Assembly (NCBI GenBank): GCA_965208325.1
Contig: OZ242326.1
Span: 704,001 to 768,000, forward strand
DNA length: 64,000 nt
Direction of reading: 5' to 3'
DNA from: Candidatus Poribacteria bacterium
Lineage (GTDB): Bacteria; Poribacteria; WGA-4E; PCPOR2b
Part shown: piece by piece, positions 28,510-63,671 of the stretch
How positions within the stretch are numbered: the first letter of the stretch is position 1
Layout of the letters: every line of letters begins with the position of its first letter
Notes under the pieces: generated by a model
Told to the model about the DNA's origin: nothing
What the model saw: only the letters and a program-made list of their open reading frames with translations
Databases searched by the model: none
Position numbers and translations under genes: made by a program

Positions 28510-30501
28510 CTATTCTGCATCGACCTTTATTGACAACTCCTCCAACTGTTCGTCAGAGACCCCGGATGGTGCTCCCGTGAGCAAGCATAATCCTTTTTGC
28601 GTTTTTGGAAACGCGATGACTTCGCGAATATTCTCCTCGCCGGTCATTAGCATTATTATGCGGTCCAGCCCGGGTGCAATTCCAGCGTGCGGCGGTGTGC
28701 CGTGTTGCAGGGCTTTTATGAAATAACCGAATCGCCTTTCAACTTCTTCGGGACTAACGCTCAAAAGATCCAACACCTTCTGTTGAATGTCCCAACGATG
28801 AATTCGGACACTGCCGCTGCAAATCTCGATGCCGTTGATGACGAGATCGTAGTGCTGGGACCGGGCAGCACTAGGATTGGTATCCAAAAGCGGAACACTC
28901 TCGTCAGCGGGCGCTGTGAAGAGATGGTGAAAGGGTTCGTATCGCCGTTCGTCGTCGTTCCATTCGAACAGCGGATAATCGACAATCCAGAGGAAGTTGA
29001 AACGCCCCTCATCAATGAGGCCGAGCCGCTTGCCTAGAAGAAGACGAAGGTTTGATAGCGCGTCTGCAACGACCCTTGGTTGGTCAGCGACGAACATCAT
29101 TATGTCTCCCAACTTCGCTCCCATCCGCTGCGCTACCGCCGTGAGGGTGTGTTCCCTGAAAAACTTTACGATGCTGGACTCGAATCCGTTCTCGGTTACC
29201 TTTATCCACGCCAATCCTCTCGCTTTATAGATTGCGGCGAAATCGGTTAAGTCTTCAATCTCTTTCCTAGAAAACGCGGCTCCGCCGGAAACGGCGATGC
29301 CTTTTACCTGTCCATCTCGTTCCAAGGCGCCCTTAAAAACCTTGAAGTCACAGTCGGCGACGAGGTCGGAAACGTCGGCGAGTTCCATCCCAAAGCGAGT
29401 ATCCGGTTTATCGGTGCCGAACCGCGCCATTGCGTCGTCGTAAGCGAGGCGTGGAAACGGAATTTCCACGGATATGCCCGAGGCTTCCTCAAAAATCCGC
29501 TTCATCAAGCCTTCAGTGACTTCAAGGACATCGTCAACGGTCGCAAAGGACATCTCAAAATCGAGTTGGGTGAACTCAAGCTGGCGATCAGCGCGCGTGT
29601 CTTCATCCCGGAAGCAGCGGGGAATCTGGAAGTAGCGATCTACGCCGCTCATCATGAGAATCTGCTTGAACTGTTGCGGCGATTGTGGAAGCGCATAAAA
29701 ATTGCCCGCGTTAAGACGGCTTGGCACCAGCACATCCCGTGCACCTTCAGGTGTACTATTCATCAGGATTGGGGTTTCGATTTCAAGAAATCCCTGTTCG
29801 TCCATGTACTTCCGGGCAGCAAGCATAGCCTTGTGCCGGATGGCTAAATATTTCTGCATCTTGGGGCGACGGAGATCGATGTATCGGTATGTCATACGAA
29901 TCTCTTCGTCGGTGTCGATGTCGTCCTCAACCAGAAACGGCGGCGTTTTGGCAACGTTCAAAATTTCCAATTCTTGTGTTGCGACCTCAATCTCGCCCGT
30001 TGGGAGGTTGAGGTTTATTGTGCCCAAGTAAACGCTAACTTCGGTGGCAGTCATCTTTATAACGTAGGTTCGTTTACTTGCCCTGTCAGTCATCAGCCAC
30101 TTGTCTACTTCGCCTCGGTTCAATATCTCAACATTCTGGGAAACCGGGTGGCCGTTTGCCTTGAACGCACCTCGTAATTCCTCTGAAAAATGCAGAGCCG
30201 CCAAATCGGTTTCATGTTCTAATCCGAGGTTGAATAATAGGTCGCCCTCTAACCGTTCTCGAACTGTGCCGCTCACGGCCAACACAAACTCACCGCGAAT
30301 TTGGTTTGCAACCTTATGGGCTTCAGCATCAATCTTGGGATCGAATACGACTTGTGAAATTCCCGTCCGATCCCGTAAGTCTGCGAAAATCACGCCGCCA
30401 TGGTCTCGACGGCGAGCAACCCATCCAGTTAACTGCGCCGATTTACCGGCATCGGCGAGCCGCAACTCTCCACAATAGTGCGTCCTCTTCATGTCAGGCA
30501 T
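28510..30501 (-). CDS. aspS: Aspartate--tRNA ligase (probably non-discriminating) with a 74-aa insertion
   Basis: RTHYCG, RRDHGG, TPEGARD, ALPQSPQ, CFRDED.RADRQ.EFTQLD, GSVRIH, PPHAG.A.GLDR and IREVIAFPK motifs. Confidence 0.97.
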   Translation of the reverse strand: MPDMKRTHYCGELRLADAGKSAQLTGWVARRRDHGGVIFADLRDRTGISQVVFDPKIDAEAHKVANQIRGEFVLAVSGTVRERLEGDLLFNLGLEHETDLAALHFSEELRGAFKANGHPVSQNVEILNRGEVDKWLMTDRASKRTYVIKMTATEVSVYLGTINLNLPTGEIEVATQELEILNVAKTPPFLVEDDIDTDEEIRMTYRYIDLRRPKMQKYLAIRHKAMLAARKYMDEQGFLEIETPILMNSTPEGARDVLVPSRLNAGNFYALPQSPQQFKQILMMSGVDRYFQIPRCFRDEDTRADRQLEFTQLDFEMSFATVDDVLEVTEGLMKRIFEEASGISVEIPFPRLAYDDAMARFGTDKPDTRFGMELADVSDLVADCDFKVFKGALERDGQVKGIAVSGGAAFSRKEIEDLTDFAAIYKARGLAWIKVTENGFESSIVKFFREHTLTAVAQRMGAKLGDIMMFVADQPRVVADALSNLRLLLGKRLGLIDEGRFNFLWIVDYPLFEWNDDERRYEPFHHLFTAPADESVPLLDTNPSAARSQHYDLVINGIEICSGSVRIHRWDIQQKVLDLLSVSPEEVERRFGYFIKALQHGTPPHAGIAPGLDRIIMLMTGEENIREVIAFPKTQKGLCLLTGAPSGVSDEQLEELSIKVDAE

Positions 30502-30573: not shown

Positions 30574-30954
30574 CTAACCCGCGAGCGGAATTGGCGGCTT
30601 CTCAACGAGGGTGATTGGTACCGCCTCGGTCAACGAAGGCGTATAAACGGATACTTTTAGGATTTCGTTCACGGGCGGTTTCGTAATAATTTCAATAACC
30701 GTTTCGCGCCAGTCTGGTTCAATTTCATCCAACCCCACTAAAGGAAAACTTCGCGGACCTAATTTAGTTAATTGTATTAACACTGAGAATTCCATGAGTG
30801 TCAGGCCAACTGCGCGTTTTTCGGCACGATTGAATCGTAACAGGATATTTTCATTCAACTCGACAGCCGTTGTCGCTTTCTCGCCCGGAAAAAATGAGAT
30901 GTACAGCACATCGGCAGTCTTGTCGTAAGCGTAGACCGCTTTCTTATTCATCAT
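30574..30954 (-). CDS. DUF2283-like protein (putative antitoxin)
   Basis: YDKTADVLYI ... ENILLRF ... AVGLTL pattern. Confidence 0.7.
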   Translation of the reverse strand: MMNKKAVYAYDKTADVLYISFFPGEKATTAVELNENILLRFNRAEKRAVGLTLMEFSVLIQLTKLGPRSFPLVGLDEIEPDWRETVIEIITKPPVNEILKVSVYTPSLTEAVPITLVEKPPIPLAG

Positions 30955-31033: not shown

Positions 31034-32287
31034 TTACTGATTCTTCAATTCCTGTCCCAACCTATCAAATTCAACCGCCCGCTGATTTCCACTTTCCATA
31101 TCTCGAACCGTGGCCGCTCCATTCTTAATCTCATCTTCCCCAATAATCACGACATATTTCACTCCGAACTTGTGCGCTGTTTTCATCTGTGCCTTCAAAC
31201 TGCGTCCGTTGTATTCAAGGTCAGTTCTGATTTGGCTATCGCGGAATTTTTCCGCTAATTGGAAAGCGATAGGCATTGCTTCATCGCCGAGTACGGCGAT
31301 GTAAACGTCAATTGGCGGCTGCGGCGAAATCTCGATTTTTTGTGCTTCCAAGGCAAGTATTATGCGATCTACGCCAAGCCCAAAGCCAATCCCCGGAGTC
31401 GGTTTGTTGCCCAGTTCTTCGACCAGGTAATCGTACCGTCCACCCCCTCCGATAGCGTCTTGTGCACCGAGTCCGCCTGCCGTGAATTCAAACGTCGTGC
31501 GAGAGTAGTAATCCATTCCCCTAACGAGATTCGGATTCTCGGTAAACTCAATTCCCAATAACTTGAGGTAATGTTTCACAGCGTCGAAATGCTCGCGGCA
31601 CGAATCGCATAGATATTCCAGCAGTTTAGGTCCCTCAGATAGAATTTCACGGCACCCCTTCTTGCAGTCAAAAAGACGCAATGGGTTACGTTCATAGCGG
31701 CCTTGGCATTCTTGGCAAAACTGATTAAGACGCGCTTTTGTAAAAGCCTTGAGATCCGACACAAATTTTGGACGACAAGCACGATCGCCAATGGTATTGA
31801 GGTGTAACTTCAAATCTTTGATTCCAAGCGTCGAATAAAATTTATGGGCTAACGCGATGACTTCCGCATCAACCGCAGGTTCAGCCGCGCCGAACACCTC
31901 CACTCCAACCTGCCAATGCTCACGATAACGTCCTGCCTGCGGCCGTTCGTACCGGTACATTCGCCCATTGTAATAAAGTTTCAAGACGCTCGCGCCTTCG
32001 AGCAGCCGATTTTGAATGACAGCACGAACAACGGGTGCTGTCCCTTCTGGCCGCAGCGTGACGCTCCGGTTGGCTTTATCGTTGAAAGTGTACATCTCCT
32101 TTTCAACGATGTCAGTAGTATCCCCCACACCTCGGACAAATAGATCGGTGTTTTCAAAAATTGGGGTGCGGATTTCGTGATACCCGTATGTCGAAAACAC
32201 AGATCTCGCGACACTCTCCACCCACTGCCATGTTTGAGTCTGTGAAGGAAGGATATCTCTGGTGCCCTTTGGTGATTGAATCTCCAT
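31034..32287 (-). CDS. hisS: Histidine--tRNA ligase
   Basis: PKGTRD, KEMYTF, LRPEGTA, RYERPQAGR, LVRGMDYY and GGGRYD motifs. Confidence 0.97.
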   Translation of the reverse strand: MEIQSPKGTRDILPSQTQTWQWVESVARSVFSTYGYHEIRTPIFENTDLFVRGVGDTTDIVEKEMYTFNDKANRSVTLRPEGTAPVVRAVIQNRLLEGASVLKLYYNGRMYRYERPQAGRYREHWQVGVEVFGAAEPAVDAEVIALAHKFYSTLGIKDLKLHLNTIGDRACRPKFVSDLKAFTKARLNQFCQECQGRYERNPLRLFDCKKGCREILSEGPKLLEYLCDSCREHFDAVKHYLKLLGIEFTENPNLVRGMDYYSRTTFEFTAGGLGAQDAIGGGGRYDYLVEELGNKPTPGIGFGLGVDRIILALEAQKIEISPQPPIDVYIAVLGDEAMPIAFQLAEKFRDSQIRTDLEYNGRSLKAQMKTAHKFGVKYVVIIGEDEIKNGAATVRDMESGNQRAVEFDRLGQELKNQ

Positions 32288-32296
32288 GTCGTGCTG

Positions 32297-33445
32297 TTAA
32301 CTCCCAATTACCCGCTGAATCTTCCTTAACGATTCCGTTGCCGCATGCCGCAATTCCTCATTTTCGTCATTTCCAAGCGCTTGTAAGGCGGCAACGACTT
32401 CACTGTCGCAATAGATGACCTTTCCTAATGCTTTTGCTGCCCAAATCCTATCAGCCTTCTCAAGTAAGACTAGCTGCTCGCCGTGCGCAATGGCGGATTG
32501 GATTTCTCCATTTTCAATTTTCTGGCGCAACCGTTGTTCGCAAAACCCAATGTGCCCTACTGCTTCCGTCACCGAAAGCCACAAGCTGTTAACCTTCACA
32601 TTTTCCAATTCGCCGAGCAAAAATTCTTTGTAGAGACTTAAGAAATAGTTTTCAAATGCTAAAGTCCGCTCACAGATGTTTTTGAGTTGTTTCCTGTCAT
32701 CTGTATCTTCAGGAACGCAATACTCCCATGTTCTACGGCATTTGGCATAAACGTCTTGGATAAGGTCTGTCCATTCATCGTTGATGCGTGTTCGATATTG
32801 TTTCAGACAATCGTTTTTATCATTGACATATATATTGGCTTTGAACGCTATAATCGCCAATGCGGATTTGCCTACACAGTTGATTATCTCCTTGGTGCCT
32901 GGGCGTAACGTTCCAACCGCGTCGCGCGCTTTTCGTTTGTCGTAACCATAAAACTGCCCTTCAGGGTCAGGATAATTCAGTGGGAACACGAGACATTCTG
33001 GTTTCCCGCGGATTCGTGAATAGAAACGATACGGGACATGCATCGCGGCGCGTCTATACCAATCAAGAGGTATTAACCTTATTTCATCGCGTACATCTTC
33101 CCCATATAGCAAGGTACTGGCAAACTTAAGCGTTGGAAATCCGAGGCGTAACGCCTGTCCTTCACTATAAAGATTGAGTTCCAATGGAATTGGACTCATC
33201 AACGAACAATTTTGGCTCGTCTGCTGTGCTTTTTCATTTTCTTCTAAACTGATGAAATTGTCAATGAACAGGATGTCAACGTCAATGTCGCTTGCCGGAA
33301 CCGCAGTGCCATCCGTATAACTTCCTGTCAAGTAGTAACCTCGAATTCGATTGGGAAAAACCGATTCAAATATTCCAATTGCACCACGTAAAATATCGTC
33401 AACCCTTCGGTTGCCGACAGAATTGAGTAGGGAGACGGTGTTCAT
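32297..33445 (-). CDS. Pol-beta-type nucleotidyltransferase domain protein with C-terminal HTH and HEAT-like repeat
   Basis: GYYLTGSY.DG....SDIDV motif; WLSVTEAV..IG..EQRLRQKI HTH; AAKALGK...VAAL..L..DENEELRHAA. Start moved to ATG 33445. Confidence 0.7.
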   Translation of the reverse strand: MNTVSLLNSVGNRRVDDILRGAIGIFESVFPNRIRGYYLTGSYTDGTAVPASDIDVDILFIDNFISLEENEKAQQTSQNCSLMSPIPLELNLYSEGQALRLGFPTLKFASTLLYGEDVRDEIRLIPLDWYRRAAMHVPYRFYSRIRGKPECLVFPLNYPDPEGQFYGYDKRKARDAVGTLRPGTKEIINCVGKSALAIIAFKANIYVNDKNDCLKQYRTRINDEWTDLIQDVYAKCRRTWEYCVPEDTDDRKQLKNICERTLAFENYFLSLYKEFLLGELENVKVNSLWLSVTEAVGHIGFCEQRLRQKIENGEIQSAIAHGEQLVLLEKADRIWAAKALGKVIYCDSEVVAALQALGNDENEELRHAATESLRKIQRVIGS

Positions 33446-33452
33446 CTGAAAT

Positions 33453-36400
33453 TTACGATTTCGGTTGCATCGCTGCCTGAATCTTGCGCCGTTGCTCTTG
33501 AAGTTCCGCAACACTGGGGGCAAGGCGAAGCGCTTCGGCATTAGCTTTCAATGCATCGCCATATCGCTTCTGTGACAAGTAAAAATCCGCCAAATCTTTG
33601 TGTAACAGCGGCTCGTCCGGTGCAATGCGAATTGCACGCTTGTACGAATCAATTGCTTCGCTAATTGCCTTCTCGCCCGCATATATATTGCCTAAAATAT
33701 AATGCCCACGCCACAAATTTGGGTTAACTTCCAAAGTCTTCTCTGCATACTGGCGCGCTTCCGGCATCATGTTTTTAAGACGGTAGATAGATGCCATAGC
33801 CGCGAATATTTCAGCGGGAAGATTTGAATCTAACGCCTCAAGGCGTTGGTAAGTCCGCAGCGCTTCATCATTGCGTTCTTGGCGTTCATAAATAGGTCCG
33901 AGTAGGAGGTAAAAGTCTAGACGATTTGGTTCAAGTTCAATCGCAGTCTCAATGGCTTTAGCGGCCTCGTTTAATTTCCCTTGGCCTTCGTTGATGACCG
34001 CGAGTTGAACGTAGCCTTCCGTATCGCGAGGATTAGTTCGCAAGGCCTGTTTCACGACCTGTTCAAGTCGCTTGAGCTCGTTTTGCTCCTCCTTACGAAC
34101 CAATCCGGCTGCAACACCAAGATGGTATCGAATCACCTCGTCGCCGGGATTAATTGCCAATCCACGGTTAAAATGGCCAAATGCGTCCTCATATTCTCCC
34201 GCGACATGGGCAAGTTGGCCTTGAATGAGATTCTGAGTGGCGTCGAAGTAAAGGGCCGCCCGTTTTCTCACTTCGGTTTTCTCCGCCATCGATTTACCAT
34301 AATTCTTCAGGTACGGGTTGACGCGTTCGCGGTGTTTCGCCAGTGCTGAAATAATTCTCCTACTGGCTCCTACAGACTGGTTTGTACGGATTAACCCCAA
34401 ATTCGGACGGCTATCCGAATAAACAGCGCCGTATCCGGCATAGTTTCGGAGAGCATCCTCACTCATCATAAACGAATCCAGCAACGACATACCGTCAAGG
34501 TCATCCCCTGCGAGCGCATCGCTGATGTTTGCAATTTGTGTTCTGCCCATAAAGTCTACAAAATCAATCTTGAGTCGTTCAGATGTGCCAATCAAGACGG
34601 CGAAGTCAGGCGAGTATTTGTACCATAGTGTTGTGTGAGGAAAAACTTCAAGCATTGTCCTCAAAGCCATTTTGAAATGCACGTCGGAGTTTAACCGGAG
34701 CGGAAGCCACTGGCATAAAATACCATCTTCGTTCAAAGCCCGTTTGCAGAGTCGGTAGAATTCTGTCGTGTTGGTTTGCGAATACCATGCCGCGGGAGAG
34801 GATGTGAAGGACCTCACTGAGATGATGTCGTACTTTTCGCCCGTTACTAGCAGATGGTTCCGCTCGCCATCAATCGTCAACTTGAATTGGGGATTGCTGA
34901 GAATATGGTGATTTACATTAGCGAAATGTGCGCGCGTTTCTTCGACGACATCTTTTGAAGATTCGACCGTATCCACATAAACGCCATGTTTCGTCATTGA
35001 GTAGGCTGTTAAGCCCATGCCGAACCCAACTACAAGTGCACGTTTCGGCTCAGGATGTAAGAGTACCGGGAGGTGGGCGATTAGACGATGTGAAGGAGAG
35101 TCCCAGCGGGAAGTATCAGCAATCTTACGCGCACCTATATACAGCTGATGGGCTCCCTTATCATCCTTTAGCACCGACACATCAGCATCAACGCCATGTT
35201 TTTGGGAAATGATTGTGCTGCCCACGCCTCGTGTGAGGTAGCCCGAATTGCTGATGAACAGAGGGTTATCTCCTGTGTATAACACAACCAGTCCGAACCC
35301 AACGGTAAGGATTACTCCACCGGCCGCTGTGCCATTAAGGATTTGCCTGGTGCGTACGGCGTTAGCTTGTGCTGAGAAAACCGTGGCGCAACCTAAAATC
35401 GCGCTCAGGGCCGATGTCAGGACAATGCCCGGACGAACGCCAATAAACGGCACAATGATGAACCCCGCGCAGAAAATTCCCGCGATTGCACCAACGATGT
35501 GAATCGCGCTGACGATGCCAATACTGCGCCCTAGTCGCGCGCCGTCGTGTGAGAAAATCCGCACTGCCATCGGAAAACACCCGCCAATCAACACTGCTGG
35601 AACAACTATCACGACCGTACACCCAAAAAGCGACGCAATCCCGCCGCCGATTGGAAGTAGTTCGCTCAGAATCGGTATCGACGCTACGCCAAAAATCCCG
35701 ATGGCAATCTGCATCAATCCGAACAAACTAAAAAGAGACTTAACGCGGTCAGTTACTCGAGCGAATAACATACTCCCGATAGCGATGCCAAACAGTAAGA
35801 CTGCCAAGAAAAATGTTGTCGCCGCAAAATCGAGCGAGTGCACCAAGGCACGCCTCCAGAGCATTGCATAAGTCATCGTGCAGAAGCCGGAGACAGCAAA
35901 TGCCAAGAAAGCTAACCGATTTGGCGCAAGCGGTTCGGTTGTATCTGGGCGAGATTCCGCGTGCGTTGCGGTTATATGCTTCTCGTCCTTAACACTCGAA
36001 ATACCACTTACCGACTGCCGAGGCAGCCCAAAGGCTACGGCTGCGGCAACCAAATTAATGCCCGCGCATAAATAAAGAGACGGCTGAACCCCTAAAGTTT
36101 GTAATAGGAAATATCCCACCGCGAGGCATCCGATGGCGCCGCCAAGCATCTTGATACCGTTGAGAACGCCGACGTGGAATCCAAGACCGTCCGCACTCCG
36201 CACGAAAACCCTGCACAACACAGGTAATGTGCCTCCCATCAGAATCGACGGGACAATCAGGACGAGAAAGGATAAAGCAAACCGAATGAACAAAAGCGAA
36301 TAGAACTCCCCATTAAGCGCGCGAAAGGCTAGAATGTGCGCGGCGTTTAGCACATTCAATAGCAATGGGGAGACAAGGGCAAATACACCGATACCTAATT

Positions 36401-61556: not shown

Positions 61557-63671
61557 GTGAAGTATTCTACGCCTTATTCCATCCTCATTCTAACCGCCGT
61601 ATGGCTGTGTCTTACCAATTCTAGCACGTACGCACTGAAAGAGTTTGGCGATATTATAATTACACCGGAACTCACCCCTAGCGGCAGTAGTTTCCACGGA
61701 TATGCGGAATACAGAATTAATGTATCCAATCGCTCGCCTGACAAAGCGCATCTCGTAACATTGGCGTTGCCGAAGACCAATTACGGAATGTTTGGCAATC
61801 AAATCCGAAAAATCACCCGTTCAGTAATTGTCGGCCCCTCTGCTACTGCCCGGGTCGCCTTGTTTCAGCCTTCAGTAAGCCTAGATGGACACGGTCTAGA
61901 AGTCACCATAGACGGTAAAGTGCAAGATGACGCGGTTCCACTGTCTATCGGCAATCACGGCCGCCACGACAACGTTTTCATGCCTCACCACCCGGCGGGA
62001 ATGCCGCACACGATACGTAGCAGCAATCCTGAGATTCGAATTTTGATAAGCCGCAATGTGGACACGGCTGATTTGCATTCCCACGTTGGAAACCAACTCA
62101 ACACTTCGAGGTCAACAGGCGGTTTCTCACCATCTGGAGGTGTACCTCACCCATTTGCGCCGCCAAGATCGGGAACCGGCTATGAAACCATTGACCTCGG
62201 ATTCCCGGTTTCAGCGTGGAGCAGCAATTGGCTCGGTTATTCTCGATACGACAGCGTCATTGTCACAGGCGATGACGTGAAAATGATGCCGGCGGATGTT
62301 CAATCCGCGTTGTGGCGCTACGTGGAATGCGGCGGCGCTCTACTTGTATTGGGAGGACGGGAACTTCCCAATATTTGGGGGTTGAAGGCCGCCGCCGATA
62401 CCTCCGAATTTGTTAACTATTATGCCGGTTTCGGTCAGTGTATCGTGACGGCTGACGTGAATACATTTCACTTAACGCCGGAGCAGTGGTCTGAGATTGT
62501 GTCTTCGTGGTTGAAGACTGAAAATCCGCGGAGAACCAGCCGGACGGTTGAGGGTGCTAACGCGATGTTTCCGGTGGTGGAAGGTTTAGGGGTTCCTGTG
62601 CGCAGTATGTACCTATTGATGCTTCTTTTCGCCGTATTGATTGGACCGGTGAACCTCATAGTACTGTCGCGAAAAAAACGCGGCATCTGGATGCTTTGGA
62701 CAGTGCCGGCAATCTCGCTTATTACATGTCTCGCTGTCTTCGTGTACGCGACGTTCGCCGAAGGGTGGGAACGACACGCCCGAATCGAAGCACTGACACT
62801 ACTCAACGAAAAGACTCACCGCGCCACAACGATTGGTTGGACCGCGTTCTATTCAGCGCTCACGCCATCCGACGGTTTGCACTTCGGCTATGATACTGAG
62901 TTGACGCCCCAAATTGCCTCTACTCAGATGGCAGGAACGCCTCGCTCGGTCGACTGGACGCACGACCAACACCTAGAAAGTGGTTGGATGACTGCGCGAG
63001 TACCGGCGCATTTCATGCTGCGCAAGAGCGAAGTGAGGCGTGAGCGTGTCACGGTTAGACGGGGAACAGATAAACGCCTAAGCATTGTTAACGGTCTGGG
63101 CGCTGTCATAAAACAGTTCTGGTTGGCGGATTACGATGGTGAAATCTATTTTGGAAAGGACATTCCTGCGGGCGCGGAAGCGGAATTGAGTGCGCGTACG
63201 CAATTGCGTCTAGGCAACCCGGGTGGAGTTGATGGGACATTTCAATTTGAACTATGGGATTCATCCGTCAATATGGACCTGGATTCCGGGGAAATTTCCC
63301 CATTGCTAAGGGACGAGATGAAATGGCGAGGCGAGCCGCTCTCCGATGATGTTTCCATAGCCGTTTCAAAGCACGGTTATGAGTGGGTAATAACGGATCG
63401 CCTCTCGAATCGGACTTACACCATTAAGGCGGACACTATCGACGGCCCACTCCGAATTCATAGTAACGCAGCGCCTATTTTGCGGGGTATATTTGCCTCC
63501 GATGATTGGATTTACAACATCAATTTTCTCAAGGAAGCTCCGGTAAACTATCTCCGCCCCAACTGTTATATCGCAGAATTATCGTCTGCTCCATTTATTG
63601 AGGATGGTCTTCGAAACACGACAGAAAAAAGATATAGCTCGGTCGTTTATGGCATTTTGGATGTGCAATGA
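61557..63671 (+). CDS. Secreted/membrane hypothetical protein (class I glutamine amidotransferase-like central region) carrying a ~70-aa guest domain
   Basis: RBS GGAGG, signal peptide, W.GY..YD...AL..YV..GG.L.V.GG segment, two TM helices, and a segment similar to the AspRS insertion. Confidence 0.75.
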   Translation: MKYSTPYSILILTAVWLCLTNSSTYALKEFGDIIITPELTPSGSSFHGYAEYRINVSNRSPDKAHLVTLALPKTNYGMFGNQIRKITRSVIVGPSATARVALFQPSVSLDGHGLEVTIDGKVQDDAVPLSIGNHGRHDNVFMPHHPAGMPHTIRSSNPEIRILISRNVDTADLHSHVGNQLNTSRSTGGFSPSGGVPHPFAPPRSGTGYETIDLGFPVSAWSSNWLGYSRYDSVIVTGDDVKMMPADVQSALWRYVECGGALLVLGGRELPNIWGLKAAADTSEFVNYYAGFGQCIVTADVNTFHLTPEQWSEIVSSWLKTENPRRTSRTVEGANAMFPVVEGLGVPVRSMYLLMLLFAVLIGPVNLIVLSRKKRGIWMLWTVPAISLITCLAVFVYATFAEGWERHARIEALTLLNEKTHRATTIGWTAFYSALTPSDGLHFGYDTELTPQIASTQMAGTPRSVDWTHDQHLESGWMTARVPAHFMLRKSEVRRERVTVRRGTDKRLSIVNGLGAVIKQFWLADYDGEIYFGKDIPAGAEAELSARTQLRLGNPGGVDGTFQFELWDSSVNMDLDSGEISPLLRDEMKWRGEPLSDDVSIAVSKHGYEWVITDRLSNRTYTIKADTIDGPLRIHSNAAPILRGIFASDDWIYNINFLKEAPVNYLRPNCYIAELSSAPFIEDGLRNTTEKRYSSVVYGILDVQ

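Follow-up and report, generated by a model that had tools for sequence, protein, structure and literature searches.

Why does the only aspartyl-tRNA synthetase (AspRS) of a sponge-associated bacterium carry 74 additional residues in the domain that binds the anticodon? The question is posed by aspS in a 64,000-nucleotide stretch of DNA from a Candidatus Poribacteria bacterium (assembly GCA_965208325.1, contig OZ242326.1, positions 704,001 to 768,000; hereafter, the window), the genome of which is a single contig of 4.7 Mb, 95.6% complete. An earlier, sequence-only reading of the window had set the insert beside positions linked to tRNA recognition; that it is peculiar to this enzyme is not borne out, as the same domain occurs in about 20 unrelated proteins of the genome. 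Sequence comparison shows that the insert is not a subdomain specific to AspRS but belongs, as one copy among others, to a family nested in these proteins. We consider it probable, if well short of certain, that the AspRS segment is a self-folding passenger domain that has spread by copy-and-paste and that belongs to an undescribed Poribacteria family.

An extra domain in the OB-fold of AspRS

The aspS product is an AspRS of the bacterial type. It scored 737 bits against the NCBIfam model aspS_bact (TIGR00459), which has a cut-off of 374, and matched AspRS in the PDB with an E value of 3e-175. Pfam assigned residues 198–635 to tRNA-synt_2 (PF00152; E 8.8e-116) and residues 389–482 to GAD (PF02938; E 3e-25), showing that the class II core with the bacterial GAD insertion is present. 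NCBIfam and profile searches of the genome identified this gene as its sole AspRS, and no archaeal-type AspRS was found above its cut-off in the genome searched. The Pfam model of the N-terminal oligonucleotide/oligosaccharide-binding (OB) fold (tRNA_anti-codon, PF01336) matched residues 24–86 with its positions 3–63 of 75, and the match stopped there.

Alignments with solved AspRS structures, all of which lack the extra segment, were split at the same point. E. coli AspRS (1c0a) aligned in two blocks (query residues 6–86 with chain residues 2–81, and 161–660 with 82–583), as did the T. thermophilus enzyme (4–85 with 2–81, and 163–660 with 83–578), and the N-terminal part as a whole (residues 1–86) matched residues 2–81 of 1c0a and 9–90 of P. 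aeruginosa AspRS (4wj3_M). The 74 extra in-frame residues, D87–G160, sit after G86 in the β4-β5 hairpin of the OB-fold, at the point that corresponds to the K81-N82 junction of the E. coli enzyme, and both their position and their description had been given correctly in the sequence-only reading (Table 1). In a full-length AlphaFold2 (AF2) model, the OB strands of the N-terminal part span residues 21–34, 37–44, 47–53 and 73–82, and the insert lies between the last of these and the strand formed by residues 171–181. A GGC (Gly) codon is found at both ends of the insert in aspS, rendering its boundary ambiguous by one codon.

The insert occupies the same site in 10 further AspRS proteins from databases (56–77% identity over residues 80–170). 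Alignment with the AspRS of relatives allowed its presence and absence to be mapped exactly: among 40 aligned genes from 41 related genomes (one fragmented, insert-free gene was omitted), 15 have the insert at this site and 25 lack exactly this segment. Of 121 genomes sampled across the phylum, two are incomplete and gave no AspRS match; the insert is found in 93 of the 119 AspRS genes of this sample and is cleanly missing from the other 26. In addition, sponge-metagenome contigs from two other studies (X5 and X6) span both junctions with 13–15 substitutions and with neither an insertion or deletion nor a joint; a metagenome run that matches perfectly is possibly the source of the present assembly. 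The ratio of nonsynonymous to synonymous substitution rates (dN/dS) is 0.03–0.40 for the insert in nine gene pairs and 0.03–0.18 for the rest of aspS in the eight pairs for which it was computable, with dN 1.4–4.6 times higher in the insert than in the rest of the gene (eight pairs). By these comparisons of gene sequences, the insert is translated and held under purifying selection, though less tightly than the enzyme proper.

These observations bear on whether the segment might be an intein or otherwise removed, or a product of faulty assembly. It does lie in frame in an essential gene and the residue that follows it is a Thr, yet we assign such explanations practically no probability. Chance is ruled out, and so is an assembly chimera, which the sequence-only reading had named as a possible undoing of its claim, by the presence of the insert at the same site in 93 genomes and by the contigs of other studies that run continuously across both junctions. 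An intein was rejected, in agreement with the sequence-only reading, because the segment begins with Asp87 rather than with a Cys, Ser or Thr and ends in Leu159-Gly160 rather than in His-Asn, there is no Cys anywhere in it, 74 residues are too few for a HINT fold and no Pfam family matched; the purifying selection and the lack of RNA structure likewise speak against a removed segment. The likeness to inteins is limited to an autonomous fold that lies in frame in a loop of an essential host protein. The present guest has no splicing residues, no homing endonuclease and no HINT fold, which takes about 130 residues or more, and selection on its sequence indicates that it stays part of the mature protein.

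A precedent within the same enzyme is GAD, likewise a whole domain nested in AspRS without loss of function, which this protein has as well. GAD, however, is ancient, universal in bacterial-type AspRS and part of the catalytic core, while the insert lies in the OB-fold, is limited to three groups of one order and is found in unrelated proteins. It is therefore not a known, widespread AspRS subdomain, the second outcome that would have told against the sequence-only reading; no described family covers it. As a separate observation, one genome of family f2 encodes a 750-aa AspRS frame (G094:C1:284586-285269, plus strand) in which the match to residues 2–93 is parted from that to residues 85–199 by some 17 additional residues, at the insert's left junction.

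The insert is predicted to fold on its own. With 20 paralogues as the alignment, AF2 modeled the domain with a mean predicted local distance difference test score (pLDDT) of 89.6 and a predicted template modeling score (pTM) of 0.76, as a confident small fold of strand, helix, helix and four strands; in an 80-residue stretch, these elements comprise strand 4–8, helices 10–17 and 23–31, and strands 40–44, 50–55, 60–66 and 71–75. The same order appears in the full-length model, in which the insert reaches pLDDT 80–90 (strand 88–92, helices 94–101 and 107–115, strands 124–128, 134–139, 144–150 and 155–159). The view of the sequence-only reading, that the segment is a folded guest which an essential enzyme tolerates, is upheld by these models, by purifying selection and by the fact that this is the sole AspRS. 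The family consensus reads roughly LLFsiD..fQ.DLD.G.iS..LRqaFe.NG..LS.nV.iS....g..WlItD..n..tY.VrKe...LnIY. In the numbering of the 80-residue stretch, W51 is invariant and the polar positions S37 and D55 are nearly so, the conserved positions being otherwise mostly core-like hydrophobics. The insert has a net charge of -3, no Cys and no hydrophobic run longer than four residues. A predicted complex of two copies of the domain scored 0.00, which has no bearing either way.

Comparisons with known folds and families gave no assignment. Foldseek found no match in the PDB at E ≤ 0.001 (best E 0.32), and VIA-align, run against 48,161 chains, gave a best Z of 4.5, a level that on the tool's own scale marks common arrangements; no chain reached Z 5. 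The nearest structures were profilin-like and KA1 folds (OdinProfilin, 5zza_P, Z 4.5 over 67 residues; KA1 domains, 5iri_B and 5wi2_B, Z 4.1–4.3), which resemble the guest domain in placing a small sheet on helices but share just 7–12% sequence identity with it. The insert matched no family in Pfam (E ≤ 1), NCBIfam, PHROGs or PADLOC, no Pfam family was common to more than one of the 20 paralogous copies at E ≤ 1, and no Pfam model covered the domain stretch in the 17 hosts scanned in this genome. Two Pfam matches were judged spurious, namely NttC on AspRS (E 0.25) and Inhibitor_I48, which overlapped a domain copy in one of 92 hosts from a wider survey (see below). A 110-aa homologue (P0135) gave weak matches only, to phrog_4741 (E 0.028) and to PADLOC MTase_II (E 5.8e-4); in the ESM Atlas its matches were also weak (best feature score 0.82), and one structural match, to a Poribacteria-rich CtaA cluster, is a lead only. 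No published description of the domain was found in the literature on Poribacteria, inserted domains and synthetases, subscription journals not being covered.

One domain family in unrelated host proteins

With the 74-residue insert as the query, the whole genome (G000) returned 23 places at E ≤ 10, all within other long open frames. A profile built from these matches found 25 matches in 20 open reading frames (ORFs), and a genome-wide count at E ≤ 1e-5 gave 24 copies, all in stop-free frames of 203–2275 aa. The paralogous copies are 23–38% identical to the AspRS copy, and they interrupt their hosts in different ways. The domain splits the core-binding domain (Sigma54_CBD) of sigma-54, lies between the PDZ domains of the site-2 protease RseP and in the first loop of the heme A synthase CtaA, and forms two tandem copies in a UPF0182 membrane protein. 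Two copies are present in a 1431-aa HEAT-repeat protein and three to four in a fusion of an extracytoplasmic function (ECF) sigma factor with a propeller. An M23 peptidase, a histidine kinase, an O-antigen ligase, a DUF4861 protein, a DUF255/thioredoxin protein, a TPR protein and several proteins without a Pfam family complete the picture. In four hosts, the Pfam models (UPF0182, Sigma54_CBD, COX15-CtaA and DUF4861) match in two stretches that flank the domain. The window itself holds a second copy (Table 1), near the C-terminus of a 704-aa ORF (61557..63671, plus strand) that has an N-terminal signal-like segment and only a weak Pfam match, to GLMA_2nd.

The family is found throughout the phylum Poribacteria, which is the range that our taxonomic sampling covers. 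Among 1.84 billion proteins, 2,676 representatives match the profile at E ≤ 1e-3, of which 1,033 do so at E ≤ 1e-10, and the matches form tandem arrays of up to 11 stretches in one protein. Pfam analysis of wider hosts, covering 92 of the best 150 profile matches, identified pentapeptide-repeat proteins (11 of 92), PD40 propellers, SpoIIE phosphatases, CHASE2 sensors, MotB, TssG, sigma-54 and RseP, as well as ABC permeases and ATPases, MFS transporters, ComEC, PilM, baseplate-J and tail proteins, a signal peptidase, an aldo-keto reductase and a formylglycine-generating enzyme; 35 of the 92 are without any Pfam family. All 41 related genomes have the domain, in 5–41 copies each: 5–10 in family f4, 10–12 in family f2, 13–19 in genus g5, 19–25 in family f3 and in genus g1, to which the present genome belongs, and 38 and 41 in genera g3 and g7. 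In the genomes representing these last two genera (G005 for g3, G009 for g7), the hosts include BamA, cytochrome oxidase subunit II, prepilin peptidase, DsbD, a rhomboid protein, S41 peptidases and an ABC ATPase, among others. Across the phylum, 117 of 121 genomes have the domain, and the four without it belong to two families (f5 and f6) of another order. A consensus-like copy, used as the tblastn query, had no match among 72,556 plasmids and 50,697 phages, and an IMG/VR relative of the baseplate-J host (47% identity) had no copy at E ≤ 1e-3.

Several individual copies deserve mention in their own right. One, in the 574-aa host of the sister genome G002 (G002:C1:3352462-3352680, minus strand), contains an in-frame TAG, which may point to a pseudogene or to recoding, or may be an error of sequencing. 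Another, at residues 419–507 of a HEAT-repeat host ORF (L102, on contig C258 of G009), contains the short tandem duplications RWLIT-RWLIT and DKTK-ITDKTK, which resemble replication slippage within the domain. The UPF0182 protein of G005 (L077/L093/L095, G005:C1:3254437-3258909) has four copies, against two in the present genome, and a 485-aa G005 protein without a Pfam family (L079, G005:C1:2774387-2777605) consists largely of four tandem copies.

Such a distribution could mean that the domain does something useful for all its hosts, as an adaptor or sensor that would give them one partner, ligand, location or mode of co-regulation and that would tether or regulate AspRS. We regard this, the leading alternative, as rather unlikely, although several features speak for it: the copies have been kept for long at orthologous sites under purifying selection and are maintained in 117 of 121 genomes, S37 and D55 are near-invariant polar residues besides the invariant W51, and tandem arrays of up to 11 matched stretches, often together with pentapeptide repeats (11 of 92 hosts), are characteristic of interaction modules. 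However, the hosts share no pathway and apparently no compartment. AspRS, sigma-54 and the ABC ATPase are cytoplasmic by the established topologies of their families, and the RseP PDZ region, CtaA loop 1, BamA POTRA domains and cytochrome oxidase subunit II (COX2) are periplasmic, which would put hosts on either side of the inner membrane. Moreover, close orthologues manage without the domain (AspRS in 25 of 40 genes, NuoJ and BamA; see below), no ligand-binding family or fold was matched, and the conserved positions are mostly core-like.

tRNA recognition, aspS history and the mode of spread

The position of the insert next to the anticodon-binding surface raises the possibility of a role in tRNA selection. 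No asparaginyl-tRNA synthetase (AsnRS) scored over the cut-off in this 95.6%-complete genome (the best asnS match, on a 539-aa ORF, reached 101 bits against 342.6), and it is unlikely that an AsnRS was left out of the assembly. GatB is present (gatB, 573.9 bits against a cut-off of 314.8), and both tRNA-Asp(GUC) and tRNA-Asn(GUU) are encoded. By the logic of the indirect pathway of Asn-tRNA formation, as laid out in PMC2330236 and PMC9976931, the lack of AsnRS together with the presence of GatB obliges the lone AspRS to charge tRNA(Asn) as well as tRNA(Asp). On this genomic evidence, the enzyme is predicted to be non-discriminating, and the anticodon-proximal β4-β5 loop can bear a whole domain in an AspRS that must serve two tRNAs.

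H34 of the RRRDHGG motif aligns with His39 of P. aeruginosa AspRS (4wj3_M), and G86 and G160 both align with its Gly90; E. coli AspRS has Leu and Lys at these positions. The β4-β5 loop of class IIb synthetases approaches anticodon base 36, and the His and the loop Gly of the P. aeruginosa enzyme reportedly govern acceptance of tRNA(Asn), as Bernard and co-workers are said to have found in 2006. The insert might accordingly be imagined to reshape the loop for discrimination between tRNA(Asp) and tRNA(Asn), or for docking of GatCAB in a transamidosome. Its location between the K81 and N82 equivalents, beside the Gly aligned to position 90 of 4wj3_M, and the need of the enzyme to charge tRNA(Asn), with no AsnRS over the cut-off and GatB present, fit this idea, which nonetheless seems to us highly improbable, given that the same domain is found in about 20 unrelated proteins. 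H34 and the loop Gly do not vary, whether or not an AspRS has the insert, the insert-free orthologues are 70–80% identical to the present enzyme, and some of them come from relatives in the same order. The tRNAs (86–100% identity for tRNA-Asn, 80–100% for tRNA-Asp) track taxonomy rather than the insert, and a net charge of -3 is ill-suited to RNA binding. Because H34 and the Gly are invariant, the tRNAs follow taxonomy and the insert is acidic, a role in discriminating between tRNA(Asp) and tRNA(Asn) appears unlikely from sequence. As a side observation on tRNA genes, all 16 genomes of genus g5 (e.g., G007:C1:3259755-3260176) have two tRNA-Asp copies 240–380 bp apart, and the other 25 genomes searched have one.

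The distribution of filled and empty aspS alleles was then compared with an AspRS tree, built without the insert columns; the groups were named after an earlier tree had been viewed. Insert-bearing AspRS occur in genus g1, which includes the present genome, and in families f3 and f2. Insert-free genes, in which VRERxEG is joined to xxNPNL, occur in the other genera of family f1, the family of the present genome, in family f4 and in all eight genomes from other orders or classes. As all eight of the latter are without the insert, it is derived and not ancestral. On the tree, the insert-bearing genes need two changes, while forcing them into one clade costs only 0.58 log-likelihood (lnL) units (p of the approximately unbiased test, p-AU, 0.51). 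The taxonomic family f1 as a single clade was rejected (59 lnL units, p-AU 0.0036). Similarities of sigma-54 and tRNA-Asp, unlike the AspRS tree, follow taxonomy. The simplest account would be a single insertion in an aspS lineage, after which the filled allele moved between families; alternatively, one insertion may have been followed by one precise loss inside f1, and the data are compatible with either. Among the AspRS genes of relatives (loci L016-L020 and L053-L072), genus g5 is divided on the tree into two well-supported groups of eight genomes each. This split and the rejection of the f1 clade suggest, at the level of sequence phylogeny, that aspS alleles have been exchanged among Poribacteria lineages independently of the insert.

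Other hosts record other events. The sigma-54 insert is present in 36 of 41 genomes, in families f1, f2 and f3, and is absent from f4; genera g3 and g7 have a second tandem copy there. Among the genomes tested, G005 and G009 alone have the BamA insert, which four others are without, and the NuoJ insert was found in G009 alone, the five others tested lacking it, including G005, in which the NuoJ flanks are 83% identical. The insertions are thereby shown to differ in age, that in sigma-54 being the most widespread, that in BamA limited to two genera and that in NuoJ to one. Copies within G009 are also more alike than those elsewhere (median pairwise identity 0.43, against 0.31–0.33 within the present genome or G005) and nearer to the family consensus. 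At the DNA level, G009 copies in different genes share 74–80% nucleotide identity, with the similarity starting and stopping at the domain edges. Two G009 pairs at 93–95% amino-acid identity were not counted as new insertions, as each proved to be one gene represented twice, on contigs that overlap or duplicate each other.

We next consider what kind of element could give rise to this pattern. Selfish DNA resembling MITEs (miniature transposable elements with inverted repeats), of the kind of the Rickettsia palindromic elements (RPEs), would be a translatable non-autonomous transposon that survives only where it lands in frame. RPEs also occur between genes. Searching the whole genome with a DNA profile (nhmmer) yielded just the 24 in-frame copies, with none intergenic or out of frame, and the next match had an E value of 0.013. 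The aspS copy has no terminal inverted repeat; the inverted pairs within 29900..30360 are all internal or outside its ends. The RNA fold of the insert is no better than that of shuffled sequences (z -0.09), and there is no palindrome. A terminal repeat, TGTTTAG...CTAAACA, appeared in the consensus of nine young G009 copies and was rejected, as the encoded Leu-Phe and Asn-Ile dictate three of its seven pairs and only one of the nine copies has all seven. A target duplication was not seen at the NuoJ site, which is a variable linker without a clean empty site, and at aspS the single GGC codon at both ends is too short to judge.

On these grounds a MITE- or RPE-type element was rejected as an identity for the guest, and we hold an origin of this kind to be very unlikely, even though in-frame copies in many unrelated genes (20 ORFs here) are just what PMC10969869 describes for RPEs, and the DNA similarity of some G009 copies is limited to the element. 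RPEs, according to that source, are elements of about 150 bp, named palindromic and treated as MITEs, that lie in frame in many genes, including housekeeping genes. The two cases have in common a repeated element at tolerated sites in many unrelated genes of a lineage, with a copy number that varies by lineage (PMC10969869), and RPEs appear to be the closest published parallel. The guest domain differs from them in its unit of about 215 bp, in encoding a confidently folded domain of about 72 residues and in being conserved mainly at the protein level.

Among domains of synthetases, a comparison suggests itself with CAAD, the cyanobacterial aminoacyl-tRNA-synthetase appended domain, which reportedly has two transmembrane helices, anchors cyanobacterial synthetases to thylakoids and is restricted to synthetases, according to work attributed to Olmedo-Verd and co-workers (2011). 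CAAD too is reportedly a lineage-specific extra domain, found at varied positions in the synthetases of one phylum and dispensable for catalysis. Unlike CAAD, the guest domain has no hydrophobic run above four residues, no Pfam match and hosts that are mostly not synthetases; CAAD was rejected as an identity because the two transmembrane helices and a Pfam match are lacking. Nested domain insertions and in-frame selfish repeats are both already known; a single folded, lineage-specific domain in dozens of proteins per genome fits none of the families tested.

We return to the passenger domain spread by copy-and-paste as the probable explanation. On this model, the family would have been pasted repeatedly, in frame, into loops of unrelated Poribacteria proteins, with new copies arising by copy-and-paste of the domain-coding DNA, a process that would be peculiar to this phylum. 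The AspRS copy would hang from the tip of the β4-β5 hairpin, with the OB core and the flanks E85-G86 and T161-I-N kept. With core and loop flanks preserved, the enzyme should still work, and the domain would be dispensable for aminoacylation; it may be retained chiefly because its misfolding or partial loss would be damaging to the protein that bears it.

Several points weigh against this model. One is the mechanism: no terminal inverted repeats, no associated enzyme and, at aspS, no target-site duplication beyond one Gly codon were found. Long retention under purifying selection at the same sites fits a useful shared function equally well. The similarity among G009 copies could in part be due to gene conversion or slower divergence, and for G009 copies in conserved hosts the best match in the present genome is still the orthologue in two of three cases. 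In genus g1, almost all copies are orthologous, with little sign of current activity, so that the family appears quiescent there. Outside the insert, AF2 modeled the full-length protein poorly (mean pLDDT 67.4), from a shallow alignment of 30 close relatives. Finally, the insert site lies near the anticodon, and the insert may have an effect on tRNA binding.

A bolder version of the model sees in the domain a selfish or domesticated element of a new kind, acting at the level of protein domains, a cassette of about 215 bp that encodes an inert, compact fold and is pasted exactly in frame into loops of host genes, among them essential ones, by dedicated recombination or retro-copying machinery. 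We offer this as a tentative and somewhat doubtful proposal. If it were true, the Poribacteria would represent a natural, phylum-wide experiment in the tolerance of domain insertion, and the AspRS copy would be the fossil of one event, later spread between families with its host allele.

Should the passenger-domain explanation hold, the family would be a new one, with at least 2,676 protein clusters that are unannotated in current libraries. Natural pairs of filled and empty alleles would show where essential proteins tolerate a guest of 70 residues, which could be useful for protein engineering and insertional tagging, and length outliers among Poribacteria housekeeping proteins would be real rather than annotation errors. 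It would also pose a question open to experiment, namely by what process exact in-frame copies of a coding cassette are made.

Features and neighboring genes of the window

The coordinates of aspS, of its parts and of the second domain copy are collected in Table 1.

Table 1. Positions in the window of the AspRS gene, its segments and the domain copies
Feature	Position	Strand	Basis
aspS, bacterial-type AspRS, 663 aa plus stop	28510..30501	minus	ORF, Pfam, NCBIfam, PDB alignment
AspRS residues 1–86, N-terminal part of the OB-fold (strands 1–4), ending E85-G86	30244..30501	minus	Pfam and structure alignment
H34 of RRRDHGG	30400..30402	minus	within residues 1–86
Insert D87–G160, one copy of the guest domain of about 72 residues; strand, helix, helix, four strands	30022..30243	minus	profile match, E 3.4e-25; absent from all solved AspRS
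AspRS residues 161–663; OB-fold resumes at T161-I-N-L-N-L-P-T-G-E-I-E-V, then hinge, catalytic core and GAD	28510..30021	minus	structure alignment, Pfam
OB strand 5, AspRS residues 171–181	29959..29991	minus	AF2 full-length model
Second copy of the guest domain	63255..63467	plus	genome match G000:C1:767255-767467, E 1.1e-21

Upstream of aspS, and on the same strand, a 126-aa DUF2283 protein (E 3.5e-7) is encoded at 30574..30954, between hisS (31034..32287) and aspS; no tie to the insert was seen. Directly upstream of hisS, a 414-aa protein (32297..33541, minus strand) shows weak matches to NTP_transf_2/Polbeta and to C-terminal HEAT repeats.

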